From the NCBI GenBank assembly GCA_965219455.1, contig OZ244744.1:544001-608000 (forward strand): a stretch of DNA of 64,000 bases, given 5' to 3'. A model generated the notes under the pieces. That model was not told the origin of the DNA. It saw nothing but the letters and a program-made list of their open reading frames with translations, and did not search any database. Source of the DNA: Candidatus Latescibacterota bacterium (GTDB lineage Bacteria > Latescibacterota > UBA2968 > GCA-2709665). Below are positions 27,012 to 47,656 of the stretch, one piece after another (the first letter of the stretch is position 1; every line of letters starts with the position of its first letter). The translations under genes were made by a program, and so were the position numbers.

Positions 27012-28990
27012 GTAGAGTCGAGATGTGGCGCGGTGGTTTAGGAGTGGCCTATCTGTTTCCGCCCCTTTCGTCTGGCGGTGCCTCAATAGCCGCTCCGTGC
27101 TCCGTTTCCACATCCCGCTCGTCGAACCGGACGTGCGGATTTCCCGCATCCGGCTCTCGGACAAGGAGTCATGCGTTCGCCCACGGAAAGTTGCGCTTCT
27201 GCTCCTCCAGCCGGGTCAGGCCCAATGTATTGTAGAGGACCTCAGCAGGGAAGCGTGACGTTCCCTTTCCCGGGATTCGGTACTTGTTGCACAACCACCA
27301 GCGGAGCCGTTTCCGGGTGTGGCTGTCCACACTCCGGTAGGTTTTGCTGACCGGACCCAGACAGAAGTAGTTGCCCCACCCTGCCAGCTTTCGGTTCAGG
27401 TGGGCAATCCGTTCTTGATGGTCTTTCAGCAGCCACCGTCGCGCCGTTGCCTCGCTGATGGCCCGGCAGATGTGCCGGATGGCCTTCTTTGACGGGCGCG
27501 TGCCGATATAGGCCTTTCCCGTCTTTGGCGAGTAACAGCGACCGATGGTGTAGCCCAGAAAGTCAAATCGTCCTTCTGGAAGGGTGCATATGCCCGTCTT
27601 CTGCTCGTTGACCGTCAGCTTAAGCGCTTTCATGATGGATCGCATCGCGCGCATCGCTTCTTCTGCACTGCCGCGACAGCAGATCACAAAATCGTCAGCG
27701 TAGTTGACAATATGAGCCTTCAGGCGTTGCTGATATCCCAGAAGTTGCCACCCCAGAATGAACCGCCGCATATACAGGTTCGCCAACAACGGGGAGATAG
27801 GGGCGCCTTGCGGTGTCCCCCTTCCCTGATCCTTGTTCGGCGTCGCTCGACGTTTGCGGCCCCGCTTGTCCGTCTCCTCAATCGGCGCGGTCAGCCACAT
27901 CTTGATCAGGCGCAGCATTCGCCCGTCCGAGATGCGACGCGCCACCGATTTCATCAACTCGGCGTGCGGGATCGTGTCAAAGTAGCCGCTCAAGTCGGCG
28001 TCGATCACCTGCGTGTGGCCACGGTTCACCAGAGTGTGCACGGCCCTTACAGCATCGTGCGCGCTCTTCCTGGGACGGTAGGCATACTGCTGCGCTGGCA
28101 GGTCCGCCTCGAAGATCGGCGAGATCACCAGCACCGTAGCGGTTTGCACCACACGGTCCTTCACCGTCGGGATGCCCAGCGGCCTTTGCTTTCCGTTCGG
28201 CTTGGGGATATACACCCGACGGATCGGGGAGACCCGATACGATTTGCTCCTTACGGCTTCCGACAGTTCACCTAACCACCGCTCTCGTCCATATGACTCG
28301 ATATCCTCGAACGTCTCGCCATCCACGCCCGCCGCGCCGCCATTGGCCTTGCAGCTTTGGTACGCGTGCAGCAGGATGTCCTCACGGTTTACCTTGTCAT
28401 ACAGCGCGTAGAATCGGTAATCGGGCGATTCCTTCGCTTTGGCATGCAACGTCCTCTGCAACTTCCGAACCTTGTCTGGAGGTCTTAGGCTCATACCAAT
28501 CTCCCGGCTCTCGCTCCTTTGACGTTGCCCTTGAACCAAGGCCCCTTTCCTCCACCGGCATTACCCGGCTTCTCCGGTACTACGGGCCTCTCCGCCACCC
28601 CACACGGCCCGGCCTGGCCCTCACGGGCTGCCGGTTGGTGTCTATACACCACCGCTGGGGCTTCCCGTGTTGCGTCGGAACTCCTTGTATACGTGCCTTC
28701 GCCATTACCCCGGCGGGACCGTTGGATGCGCGCGTTGCTGTCTTTTTCCAACGACGGCGGCCTTCCCCGATCCATGGGCGGGTCGGCTCCCGCATTACCT
28801 TTTTTCGAGGCCTGCTCAGCGTTCACTCACGTTTCGGCCCGCATACTCGCCCAGTCGCCTTGCGACCTTCTGCACCGGAGGCTTCGGAGATGTCGTTACC
28901 TGCGTCTCCGCTCCGGTTGCTACCGACTGCAGCAACATTTGTCGGGTGGGACTTTCACCCACTGAAGTTCCGCGCCTTTTCACGGCGCAC
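27012..28990 (-). mobile_element. Group II intron, copy 1 (1979 nt)
   Basis: Minus strand starts GTGCG (plus CGCAC 28986-28990), has DV GAGCCGGATGCGGGAAATCCGCACGTCCGGTTC and ends ...CTCTAC; removing it restores a site matching 23018-23070. Confidence 0.95.
27169..28494 (-). CDS. ltrA: Group II intron reverse transcriptase/maturase (no endonuclease domain)
   Basis: AAGVDG, RPLGIPTVKDR, DADLSGYFDTIPH, GTPQGAPISPLLANLY, YADD, FDFLGY; ends after domain X. Confidence 0.95.
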   Translation of the reverse strand: MSLRPPDKVRKLQRTLHAKAKESPDYRFYALYDKVNREDILLHAYQSCKANGGAAGVDGETFEDIESYGRERWLGELSEAVRSKSYRVSPIRRVYIPKPNGKQRPLGIPTVKDRVVQTATVLVISPIFEADLPAQQYAYRPRKSAHDAVRAVHTLVNRGHTQVIDADLSGYFDTIPHAELMKSVARRISDGRMLRLIKMWLTAPIEETDKRGRKRRATPNKDQGRGTPQGAPISPLLANLYMRRFILGWQLLGYQQRLKAHIVNYADDFVICCRGSAEEAMRAMRSIMKALKLTVNEQKTGICTLPEGRFDFLGYTIGRCYSPKTGKAYIGTRPSKKAIRHICRAISEATARRWLLKDHQERIAHLNRKLAGWGNYFCLGPVSKTYRSVDSHTRKRLRWWLCNKYRIPGKGTSRFPAEVLYNTLGLTRLEEQKRNFPWANA

Positions 28991-29208
28991 CATGGATATA
29001 CAGGATAGACAGGATAAAGGCGGAAAGCCTAGAAAAGCGGTACGTACTCAGACGGAACAGAAGTAGAATCGCAGTTAACTGCAAGGCAGTATGCAGCAGC
29101 AAGCTCTGGGTAAAGAAAATACCCGCAACGGCAGGAATTGTTGATGCGCTGGCTGAACCTGATGTTTTGGGTTTGGGGTCTTTATCCTGTGCATCCTGTA
29201 CATCCATG
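28991..29208. repeat. CAGGAT-nonamer inverted pair L5/R4 (L5 is the intron target)
   Basis: CATGGATATACAGGATAGACAGGATAAA (28991-29018) and TTTATCCTGTGCATCCTGTACATCCATG (29181-29208). Confidence 0.9.
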
Positions 29209-29224
29209 TAAGTTGGGGTTTCTT

Positions 29225-45318: not shown

Positions 45319-47297
45319 GTAGAGTCGAGATGTGGCGCGGTGGTTTAGGAGTGGCCTATCTGTTTCCGCCCCTTTCGTCTGGCGGTGCCTCAATAGCCGC
45401 TCCGTGCTCCGTTTCCACATCCCGCTCGTCGAACCGGACGTGCGGATTTCCCGCATCCGGCTCTCGGACAAGGAGTCATGCGTTCGCCCACGGAAAGTTG
45501 CGCTTCTGCTCCTCCAGCCGGGTCAGGCCCAATGTATTGTAGAGGACCTCAGCAGGGAAGCGTGACGTTCCCTTTCCCGGGATTCGGTACTTGTTGCACA
45601 ACCACCAGCGGAGCCGTTTCCGGGTGTGGCTGTCCACACTCCGGTAGGTTTTGCTGACCGGACCCAGACAGAAGTAGTTGCCCCACCCTGCCAGCTTTCG
45701 GTTCAGGTGGGCAATCCGTTCTTGATGGTCTTTCAGCAGCCACCGTCGCGCCGTTGCCTCGCTGATGGCCCGGCAGATGTGCCGGATGGCCTTCTTTGAC
45801 GGGCGCGTGCCGATATAGGCCTTTCCCGTCTTTGGCGAGTAACAGCGACCGATGGTGTAGCCCAGAAAGTCAAATCGTCCTTCTGGAAGGGTGCATATGC
45901 CCGTCTTCTGCTCGTTGACCGTCAGCTTAAGCGCTTTCATGATGGATCGCATCGCGCGCATCGCTTCTTCTGCACTGCCGCGACAGCAGATCACAAAATC
46001 GTCAGCGTAGTTGACAATATGAGCCTTCAGGCGTTGCTGATATCCCAGAAGTTGCCACCCCAGAATGAACCGCCGCATATACAGGTTCGCCAACAACGGG
46101 GAGATAGGGGCGCCTTGCGGTGTCCCCCTTCCCTGATCCTTGTTCGGCGTCGCTCGACGTTTGCGGCCCCGCTTGTCCGTCTCCTCAATCGGCGCGGTCA
46201 GCCACATCTTGATCAGGCGCAGCATTCGCCCGTCCGAGATGCGACGCGCCACCGATTTCATCAACTCGGCGTGCGGGATCGTGTCAAAGTAGCCGCTCAA
46301 GTCGGCGTCGATCACCTGCGTGTGGCCACGGTTCACCAGAGTGTGCACGGCCCTTACAGCATCGTGCGCGCTCTTCCTGGGACGGTAGGCATACTGCTGC
46401 GCTGGCAGGTCCGCCTCGAAGATCGGCGAGATCACCAGCACCGTAGCGGTTTGCACCACACGGTCCTTCACCGTCGGGATGCCCAGCGGCCTTTGCTTTC
46501 CGTTCGGCTTGGGGATATACACCCGACGGATCGGGGAGACCCGATACGATTTGCTCCTTACGGCTTCCGACAGTTCACCTAACCACCGCTCTCGTCCATA
46601 TGACTCGATATCCTCGAACGTCTCGCCATCCACGCCCGCCGCGCCGCCATTGGCCTTGCAGCTTTGGTACGCGTGCAGCAGGATGTCCTCACGGTTTACC
46701 TTGTCATACAGCGCGTAGAATCGGTAATCGGGCGATTCCTTCGCTTTGGCATGCAACGTCCTCTGCAACTTCCGAACCTTGTCTGGAGGTCTTAGGCTCA
46801 TACCAATCTCCCGGCTCTCGCTCCTTTGACGTTGCCCTTGAACCAAGGCCCCTTTCCTCCACCGGCATTACCCGGCTTCTCCGGTACTACGGGCCTCTCC
46901 GCCACCCCACACGGCCCGGCCTGGCCCTCACGGGCTGCCGGTTGGTGTCTATACACCACCGCTGGGGCTTCCCGTGTTGCGTCGGAACTCCTTGTATACG
47001 TGCCTTCGCCATTACCCCGGCGGGACCGTTGGATGCGCGCGTTGCTGTCTTTTTCCAACGACGGCGGCCTTCCCCGATCCATGGGCGGGTCGGCTCCCGC
47101 ATTACCTTTTTTCGAGGCCTGCTCAGCGTTCACTCACGTTTCGGCCCGCATACTCGCCCAGTCGCCTTGCGACCTTCTGCACCGGAGGCTTCGGAGATGT
47201 CGTTACCTGCGTCTCCGCTCCGGTTGCTACCGACTGCAGCAACATTTGTCGGGTGGGACTTTCACCCACTGAAGTTCCGCGCCTTTTCACGGCGCAC
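45319..47297 (-). mobile_element. Group II intron, copy 2 (apparently identical to copy 1)
   Basis: Same ends, same ORF translations, constant offset of 18307 nt; inserted at the CATGGAT of arm L8. Confidence 0.95.
45476..46801 (-). CDS. ltrA: Group II intron reverse transcriptase/maturase
   Basis: Translation identical to the copy 1 ORF in the ORF track. Confidence 0.95.
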   Translation of the reverse strand: MSLRPPDKVRKLQRTLHAKAKESPDYRFYALYDKVNREDILLHAYQSCKANGGAAGVDGETFEDIESYGRERWLGELSEAVRSKSYRVSPIRRVYIPKPNGKQRPLGIPTVKDRVVQTATVLVISPIFEADLPAQQYAYRPRKSAHDAVRAVHTLVNRGHTQVIDADLSGYFDTIPHAELMKSVARRISDGRMLRLIKMWLTAPIEETDKRGRKRRATPNKDQGRGTPQGAPISPLLANLYMRRFILGWQLLGYQQRLKAHIVNYADDFVICCRGSAEEAMRAMRSIMKALKLTVNEQKTGICTLPEGRFDFLGYTIGRCYSPKTGKAYIGTRPSKKAIRHICRAISEATARRWLLKDHQERIAHLNRKLAGWGNYFCLGPVSKTYRSVDSHTRKRLRWWLCNKYRIPGKGTSRFPAEVLYNTLGLTRLEEQKRNFPWANA

Positions 47298-47656
47298 CAT
47301 GGATGTACAGGATAGGCAGGACAAGGACCAAAAACGACTATGATTCGTGTGACTATAACGATGGGCTGTGATTCGAGGCAAGAGCGGCGAAGCGCGGGGC
47401 ATGGATGTTTAAGATGGCCGTTGCGGTTAACACGACGCACCTGATATCCGCTGTAGCCCTTCCGCTACCACGCGCCCTGATCATAGAAAATTCAGTCCAG
47501 TCACGGTAACCGCAGAACGAGACTGCTTTTTGCCGTGTTTCAGATGGCAAATCGGATTTCGCTCGCCTTTCCTGTCCGCCCATCTGCCTTGGCCGCGGCA
47601 ATCATAGTTTAATCATAGTAATCACATTATTGTCCTGTTCATCCTGTCTAACCATA
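47298..47656. repeat. Composite MITE-like element (homolog of 23305-23642)
   Basis: L arm 47298-47325 plus ACGACTATGATTCGTGTGACTATAACGATGGGCTGTGATT; right end CGGATTTCGCTCG...AATCATAGTTTAATCATAGTAATCAC plus R arm 47631-47656. Confidence 0.85.

Follow-up and report, generated by a model that had tools for sequence, protein, structure and literature searches.

We examined a 64,000-nt stretch (hereafter the window) of a Candidatus Latescibacterota genome, which is a single 5.84-Mb contig (G000), and found two copies of a group II intron, each inserted into a short periodic repeat that we call the arm. Comparison of all intron copies in this genome and in sister species suggests an active group II intron family that homes into the arms through its exon-binding sites (EBS) 1 and 3 together with a further contact upstream, a reading to which we assign a probability of about 85%. 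An earlier sequence-only reading of the window had drawn attention to these introns, and its claims are taken up below where the evidence bears on them.

Intron structure and target pairing

Both elements in the window are group II introns, identical over 1979/1979 nt. Each matches the Rfam models of domains I-IV (RF02003, 104.2 bits, cut-off 49) and domains V-VI (RF00029, 45.2 bits, cut-off 40), the latter match spanning 27012-27158 in copy 1, or 147 nt compared with 77 positions in the model. They have the hallmarks of the retroelement form: the GUGCG start, the UAC end, the domain V triad and bulge, the bulged A in domain VI, and an open reading frame (ORF) for a reverse transcriptase with maturase. 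In the predicted fold, the A that bulges out of domain VI is at 27018, with the intron 3' end 7 nt away. Read on the minus strand with a slash at each boundary, copy 1 runs ...ATCCTGTATATCCATG/GTGCG...CTCTAC/TTCCCC, with its ends at 28990 and 27012, and copy 2 runs ...ATCCTGTACATCCATG/GTGCG...CTCTAC/TTTCAT, with its ends at 47297 and 45319. Both copies are preceded by ATCCTGTA(T/C)ATCCATG, and their 3' flanks are unlike each other from +2 on, which bears out the earlier claim that both introns sit at the same base of a repeat arm amid different flanks.

In the longer 456-aa frame of the intron-encoded protein, which starts from a TTG at 28539, Pfam identified RVT_1 (1.9e-36) and GIIM (1.5e-13). 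The frame contains the YADD motif and stops about 34 aa past the GIIM match. Pfam found no DNA-binding or endonuclease domain in the protein, only RVT_1 and GIIM, and we therefore regard it as lacking such domains, in keeping with the endonuclease-less intron proposed earlier.

The loop sequence CAUGGAU, presented by a hairpin of the intron, is the exact complement of the exon sequence AUCCAUG. We aligned the first 480 nt of 74 related loci from many phyla and of 15 copies from the same genome, giving 89 distinct rows, and tested all exon positions for pairing with all intron columns; a 5' end was located in 74 of the 80 related loci, and the other six gave none. Exon positions -1 to -6 are paired with intron positions 215-220 in 93, 96, 92, 94, 94 and 79% of the 89 rows, using all six pair types, and no rival intron column comes near them. 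The 4-bp stem closing the loop is paired in 92% of 200 cells with compensatory changes in three of its four pairs; its covariation score was reached by none of 500 shuffles, and slid controls scored much lower. The loop CAUGGAU is EBS1, and the sequence-only reading, which had located the hairpin and proposed this role for it, was right in this covariation-based model. Intron position 286 and exon position +1 form Watson-Crick pairs in 91% of 79 rows with all four pair types, which is the IIB-type recognition of the first 3'-exon nucleotide by EBS3; because EBS3 is an A in the window copies, their target has a T at +1.

The same genome also contains a natural series of matched changes. Six loop types match their own 5' exons at 7/7 positions, the pairs having been read by eye. 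Among the diverged loops, UGAUAGC goes with the 5' exon end GCUGUUA, UGACGGC with GCUGUCA and GCCGUCA, UAUCAGC with GCUGAUA and GUUGAUA, and GGUUAGC with GCUGAUC; in two ORF-less copies the match is imperfect (5/7 and 6/7). One scaffold with at least six EBS1/EBS3 settings, each matched by its own genomic sites, thus amounts to a natural compensatory-mutation series, which establishes, without bench work, the target code of an endonuclease-less lineage that is IIE/IIF-like and little studied. Passages in Nagy et al. (2013, PMC3753933) suggest that compact introns of this sort could be useful for biotechnology.

Judged from these features, the intron looks IIB-like in its pairings and IIE/IIF-like in domains V and VI. 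According to the same passages (PMC3753933), a 5-nt domain V loop is a IIE/IIF trait, and a long structured domain VI is a IIF tendency. Class F itself is described as unsettled in part of Toro and Martinez-Abarca (2013, PMC3552965). The class E-like character that had tentatively been given to the protein was neither confirmed nor excluded. A tblastn search of plasmids with the intron protein returned only unlabelled ltrA genes, the best at 62% identity.

Arms as insertion sites within and beyond the genome

The genome contains seven full copies of the intron that differ by 0-6 nt, a spread that points to a recent burst. There are four further full copies at 86-89% identity, several fragments, and three ORF-less copies of about 750 nt, which probably ride on protein supplied in trans. 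All seven near-identical copies directly follow the 16-mer ATCCTGTNNATCCATG and have T at +1; they have only about 30 nt of upstream sequence in common, and their 3' exons all differ from +2 on. After in-silico removal of the seven copies, the genome has 179 ATCCATG/T sites (the slash marking the insertion point), only 32 of which are preceded by ATCCTGNNN and thus of the arm type. If every ATCCATG/T site were equally usable, the chance that 7/7 insertions fall on arm-type sites would be P ~6e-6. More than the intron-binding sites (IBS) 1 and 3 must therefore be read. Of the arm-type sites, 25 are empty.

The extra specificity element is likely to be the upstream TA-N-CCTG of the arm, which carries TATCCTG at -17 to -11. 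Relatives with differing EBS1 and EBS2 letters keep YTA(G/A)C at about -17 to -13 of their 5' exons and are unrelated further upstream. Three non-arm sites occupied in a sister species (G011) contain TAG around -18 to -15, with TCCATG at their junctions. From the TAG at these sites and the YTA(G/A)C of the relatives we infer that this part of the arm might be read by the protein, by a short EBS2 pairing, or by both. A candidate EBS2 signal was found between intron positions 191-195 and exon positions -14 to -10, which are paired in 55-78% of rows in a register that slips by 1 nt between lineages; exon -12 and intron 193 are paired in 78% of rows with six pair types.

The arm consists of direct repeats with a 9-nt period, ATCCTGNNN twice and then ATCCATG. 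TTTGGTYTTT often precedes it and TAAGTTTGGGNTTTTGAATNAAAGAGGCTA often comes after. About half of the arms are followed by TAAGTTTG, which is similar to the Bacteroidetes -7 box TAnnTTTG, and a promoter was among the identities considered for the arm. With at most two mismatches, the 16-mer occurs 19 times in the window compared with 0.41 expected, and none of 100 shuffles reached 19. Across the genome, 46 pattern matches were listed, nine were set aside as not arm-like and 37 were kept, of which three (1730394, 3936972 and 4903643) still look spurious. The uninterrupted homologous site reported by the sequence-only reading is present, with its junction at 23043/23042; compared by reading with the joined exons of copy 1, it has 1/30 mismatches on the 5' side and 2/24 on the 3' side.

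Beyond this genome, a 25-letter arm pattern has 5-86 exact matches in each of the 15 genomes of the genus and none in the reversed control, and it is present in one of seven genomes from other genera of the family. The CAUGGAU hairpin occurs in only 3/15 genus genomes, with seven copies in the present genome, 12 in G011 and three in G014, so that 12 of the 15 have arms without this intron type. The copies follow the 16-mer in 9/12 cases in G011 and 2/3 in G014. Over the three genomes, 18 of the 22 copies with the same EBS1 thus lie at the 16-mer (11/15 in the two sister species), and the introns aim at the arm rather than mostly at other ATCCATG sites, the outcome that would have spoken against the sequence-only reading. 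Four related loci with a CAUGGAT loop may duplicate four of the twelve in G011 and were not added to this count.

Orthologous sites indicate the order of events. The site of copy A5 is an empty arm in the sister species G010, where the last 60 nt of the arm side are identical and joined straight to the matching 3' flank, and that of copy A7 is likewise an empty arm joined straight to the matching 3' flank in G012. The arm module is entirely missing in two of the nine loci examined as orthologous to A7. At another locus, which precedes a gene judged oxidoreductase-like by its N-terminus, the intergenic length varies over 13 other species, one of which was not extracted: it is 28-46 nt without the module in seven species; one species has about 125 nt and lacks a CAGGAT array, and four have CAGGAT-type arrays within about 300-380 nt, as against about 390 nt in the present genome. 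The arms came before the intron. The empty orthologous arms, together with the gain and loss of modules, exclude both the creation of arms by the intron and the spread of arm and intron as one block. Because the modules are present or absent at orthologous loci, they are dispensable DNA, and their gain and loss makes them plausible low-cost landing sites. In one orthologous intergenic region, four sister-species loci (L126, L130, L133 and L134) have (CAGGATT NN) arrays without the CATGGAT end in the place of the arm module; the intron can thus read only one variant within a broader family of CAGGAT arrays.

Features of the intron copies and of the arms (positions in the window unless a genome position is given)
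Feature	Position	Strand	Description and basis
Group II intron copy 1 (genome copy A3)	27012..28990	-	1979 nt, 5' GUGCG...CUCUAC 3'; Rfam and boundary reading
Group II intron copy 2 (genome copy A2)	45319..47297	-	Same orientation as copy 1; Rfam and boundary reading
Intron-encoded protein, copy 1	27169..28494	-	441 aa from ATG; RVT_1 and GIIM (maturase)
Intron-encoded protein, copy 2	45476..46801	-	Sequence as in copy 1
Domain V, copy 1	27124..27156	-	Predicted fold: AGC triad, 2-nt bulge, 5-nt loop GAAAU
Domain VI, copy 1	27015..27120	-	Predicted fold: about 105 nt, unusually long; -68.2 kcal/mol, z = -5.3
EBS1 hairpin, copy 1	28766..28782	-	CCCG-CCCATGGAT-CGGG; 4-bp stem, 9-nt loop
EBS1 CAUGGAU (intron 215-221)	Copy 1 28770..28776; copy 2 47077-47083	-	Covariation with 5' exon
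EBS3, A (intron position 286)	Copy 1 28705; copy 2 47012	-	Pairs with exon +1
Candidate EBS2, AGGUA (intron 191-195), copy 1	28796..28800	-	Weak for the arm
IBS3, T at +1	Copy 1 27011; copy 2 45318	-	Boundary reading and covariation
Occupied arm, 5' exon of copy 1	28991..29020	-	CCTTTATCCTGTCTATCCTGTATATCCATG; IBS1 at 28991-28997
Occupied arm, 5' exon of copy 2	47298..47325	-	IBS1 at 47298-47304
Unoccupied paralogous target	23018..23072	-	Arm 23043-23072, then TTCCCCTGTTTGCG...; junction 23043/23042
Unoccupied arm	26934..26962	+	Faces copy 1 across a 49-nt spacer
Other unoccupied arms in the window (16-mer positions)	23241, 23305, 23627, 26237, 26650, 29193, 30463, 41042, 44721, 47788, 50584
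ORF-less copies	G000:C1:5573551-5574307, 2868085-2868842, 2676127-2676856		Keep domain I and domains V-VI, no reverse transcriptase gene

A probable homing route and its rivals

In the route that we propose, the intron RNA and the reverse transcriptase would find the DNA site together, with EBS1 CAUGGAU pairing with ATCCATG, the last 7 nt of the arm, and the EBS3 A pairing with the T after it. The further contact, whether made by the protein, by a short EBS2 (AGG with CCU) or by both, would read TA-N-CCTG, 11-17 nt upstream. Reverse splicing would occur exactly at ATCCATG/T and be followed by copying into DNA, presumably primed from the nascent strand at a replication fork as in other endonuclease-less introns, because the protein itself has no endonuclease. 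Since the arm is part of genus-wide modules that come and go, the arm family offers dozens of dispensable, near-identical landing sites, and sister lineages in the genome, with other EBS1 and EBS3 letters, occupy or adjoin other short repeats.

The distribution of the copies could in principle also have arisen by a single entry into one arm, after which the repeat itself transposed or duplicated and carried the intron along. In its favor, insertion polymorphism makes it probable that the arm modules are mobile, and copy 1 lies between two facing arms. Such carriage is nevertheless extremely unlikely, as the seven copies have no more than the roughly 30 nt upstream in common and diverge in their 3' exons from +2, and the sister species in which the arm runs straight into the same 3' flank, with no intron between them, largely refute it; the 25/32 empty arm-type sites and the 12/15 genus genomes with arms and no such intron also speak against it. 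A simpler form of targeting, in which ATCCATG/T suffices and the arms are invaded merely for containing it, would be in line with the fact that EBS1 and EBS3 pairing is the sole proven recognition, and, according to passages in Nagy et al. (2013, PMC3753933), the EBS2-IBS2 pairing is dispensable for self-splicing of IIE/IIF introns. We regard it as very unlikely: the arm type makes up 32/179 of the sites and yet received 7/7 insertions, the non-arm sites in G011 retain the TAG (about -18 to -15), and the relatives have a conserved YTA(G/A)C in their 5' exons.

Recognition might instead be guided by structure, as in class C (IIC) introns, with a DNA hairpin of two inverted arms being recognized and the insertion made at its foot. 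Both window copies do have an inverted partner arm upstream, some 200 nt from copy 1 and some 340 nt from copy 2, so that the 5' exon could fold back. However, five of the seven copies have no such partner nearby in the arm list, an arm paired with its partner would hide IBS1 from the intron, and IBS1 is 7 bp long compared with the 3-4 bp given for class C in passages of Sonbol and Siam (2021, PMC7923331). The intron thus differs from class C in both IBS1 length and the lack of an inverted upstream partner at most sites, and we consider a hairpin-guided choice very improbable indeed.

Several observations weigh against homing into the arms by EBS1, EBS3 and an upstream contact. Four of the 22 copies lie away from arms, among them one in G014 with an IBS1 match at just 5/7 positions. 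The candidate EBS2 is weak on the arm, where it forms at most 3 bp (CCU with AGG), and it is shifted by 1 nt relative to the register of the relatives, which leaves the source of the extra specificity not pinned down. Four sequencing runs were compared, as contigs only, and no exact 1979-nt skip, as expected for joined exons, was seen among the joints listed (15 of 50). The RmInt1 intron of Sinorhizobium meliloti favors the lagging-strand template, and no such bias is seen here: the orientation of the seven copies relative to skew-inferred replication is co-directional in three, opposed in three and ambiguous in one, with an uncertain origin. Cumulative GC skew is lowest at about 3.52 Mb and peaks locally near 5.5 Mb, which at face value gives very unequal replichores. 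Finally, the arms often abut gene ends or sit just upstream of start codons; insertion may therefore not always be neutral or harmless. The last point touches the sequence-only reading, which had cast the repeat family as a multicopy safe haven. The multicopy part stands, with arms in 15/15 genomes, polymorphic modules and empty orthologues, while the safety of the haven is an inference.

Sponge metatranscriptome libraries contain the intron. In a single metatranscriptome labelled 'sponge metagenome' (X10), contigs match 27167-28997 at 100%, and bins outside 26134-29215 are close to zero, a weak hint of abundant intron RNA and of a sponge-dwelling host that DNA carry-over could also explain. 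A 1376-nt skip (27162 to 28539), found in contigs from RNA and from other runs, fits the ORF-less copies, and contig joints between arms derive from other repeat copies. The depth of the intron ORF is about 10 times that of its flanks in X1, X5 and X7, as expected of a multicopy element.

Related introns, known systems and the nature of the arms

The nearest relatives of the intron protein are encoded in metagenome-assembled genomes labelled Candidatus Latescibacterota. Diverged lineages, whose EBS1 and EBS3 letters are different, are found within or next to other short repeats. Arrays of (CAGCNNT)n with at least three units number 51 in the genome compared with 0 in the reversed control (an example is 58338-58358, minus strand); the intron fragment F1 sits directly after a strict array of this kind, and the diverged full copies B1 and B2 come after imperfect CAGCNNT arrays with fewer than three exact units. 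In G011, at least four copies of a sister lineage, distinguished by the loop UGAAUUU, occupy a single repeated site whose downstream flank is conserved over at least 60 nt. We built a maximum-likelihood tree of 24 full-length introns, namely six copies from the present genome and 18 hand-picked from the 80 related loci. The arm-reading type does not form one clade in it, the copies of the present genome being sister to a G011 group that mixes arm-reading and UGAAUUU types. The approximately unbiased (AU) test rejects grouping the arm-reading copies together (p = 0.0035), the group having been named after the tree was seen. Gene conversion within G011 could mimic this non-monophyly. We hold it doubtful, though conceivable, that an arm-reading EBS1 on two non-sister branches was invented twice or passed by recombination.

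The published passages on IIE/IIF introns (PMC3753933, PMC3552965) describe elements that are alike in being small and IIB-like, in having no endonuclease domain and a 5-nt domain V loop, and in combining a decisive EBS1 with a weak EBS2; the passages on that group mention no repeat-arm targets. A close parallel in behavior is TeI3/TeI4 of Thermosynechococcus elongatus, as far as described in parts of Mohr, Ghanem and Lambowitz (2010, PMC2882425). There, too, one family proliferated within a genome, EBS-diverged subfamilies opened new target sites, ORF-less copies were mobilized in trans, and non-essential repeated or mobile DNA was preferred. Those introns are, however, of the CL/IIB1 type with an endonuclease domain, whereas the present intron has none and has domains V and VI of the IIE/IIF type; their havens are other introns and insertion elements, in contrast to the roughly 30-nt periodic arms and other short intergenic repeats found here. 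T. elongatus is a thermophile, unlike the present host as far as known.

RmInt1, a class D (IIB3) intron, is likewise an endonuclease-less reverse transcriptase/maturase element homing into a multicopy mobile element. In the passages describing it, its target lies inside the insertion sequence ISRm2011-2, whereas the present target is a short non-coding repeat, and its class differs from the present intron, which has a 5-nt domain V loop and a long domain VI. The class C-attC introns, in the passages of Sonbol and Siam (2021, PMC7923331), resemble ours in being specialized on a repeated site at gene 3' ends, usually antisense to the neighboring gene, and in lacking an endonuclease. Class C is described there as using a 3-4 bp IBS1 with a DNA stem-loop and no EBS2, unlike the present intron with its 7-bp IBS1 and no need for a hairpin, and the attC R'/R'' consensus quoted in the same source is absent from the arms. 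An intron of Pseudomonas putida KT2440 also adjoins short interspersed extragenic repeats (repetitive extragenic palindromes, REP), according to a passage in Tobes and Pareja (2006, PMC1525189); 2/9 of its copies are REP-associated, compared with 18/22 here, all at one fixed base, and the passage gives no EBS match to REP. In open-access text we found no description of group II introns homing into such repeats. It is already known that group II introns with diverging EBS home into dispensable multicopy DNA, and what is new is the target class and the intron lineage. The sequence-only reading, which recognized no earlier description of the niche, was therefore correct for the target class and went too far for the general strategy, which has been described for other introns. 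Nothing known on group II introns is overturned, but the family shows how mobile elements come to live on other mobile elements in uncultivated bacteria, and it draws attention to an undescribed, genus-wide family of periodic repeat modules.

The arms stand in a regular relation to genes. Read on the opposite strand, 17/37 arms lie at most 70 nt past the end of a long open frame, compared with 3/37 in the other orientation and 8.75% of random positions; the distance to the gene end is often 27-31 nt, and the stop codon falls within the conserved module. In the window, the arms separate genes of a defence island, encoding the type I restriction protein HsdR, a PDDEXK_3 protein, an HsdM/S methylase-specificity protein, and Schlafen/AlbA_2 and SIR2_2 proteins. 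The PDDEXK_3 (26238-26648) and HsdS (30464-31801) frames start inside arms, which give them their start codon and first nine residues, MDKQDGQDK and MDGQDGQDK (MD.QD.QDK). HsdM and HsdS form one 887-aa open frame that runs through the arm at 30463-30478.

We considered several identities for the arm. It is not in general a coding N-terminus: 35 of the 40 listed frames that start at an arm ATG are shorter than 80 aa, and just two real genes in the window use the arm ATG. As the end of a PDDEXK_3 gene element it was rejected, only one of the four PDDEXK_3 genes in the genome starting in an arm. A REP or REPIN (paired REP) element mobilized by a REP-associated tyrosine transposase (RAYT) does not fit either, as the arm is a direct array and not a palindrome, and the two Y1_Tnp genes of the genome have no arms within 1.5 kb. 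Presence/absence polymorphism, a trait of miniature inverted-repeat transposable elements (MITEs), is seen, and inverted pairs occur, yet many arms are solitary; no target duplication or matching transposase was found for the modules. Arm modules at genome positions 1338842, 2909289, 3368161 and 4875748 share a longer repeat past the arm (more than 250 nt between two of them), and the four frames initiated there have about 25 residues in common and then diverge, which looks like a non-coding repeat and not a gene.

The arm was also rejected as the inverted repeat of an adjacent insertion sequence (IS). A 1688-bp IS (DDE_Tnp_1_4; 47804-49491) begins right after the arm at 47788-47803, at the junction used by the intron. 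It has six copies in the genome at 97-100% identity, and the five others are near none of the listed arms.

The modules often carry the stop of the preceding gene or the start of the next and are densest in the defence island. It is possible, though we think it unlikely, that the CAGGAT-type and (CAGCNNT)n arrays are an undescribed class of mobile intergenic junction modules, with the intron clade as their dedicated hyperparasite and a IIB-like counterpart of the class C-attC introns. Copies 1 and 2 lie in direct orientation 18.3 kb apart, with about 16 kb of defence-type genes between them (HsdM/S, Schlafen/AlbA_2, SIR2_2 and others; 28991-45318). Recombination between them would delete or circularize this block, and if the junction-module reading were true, direct intron copies could drive the loss or exchange of defence genes. 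Elsewhere in the window, a tRNA gene at 6589-6673 (RF00005, 49.4 bits) is unrelated to the introns.

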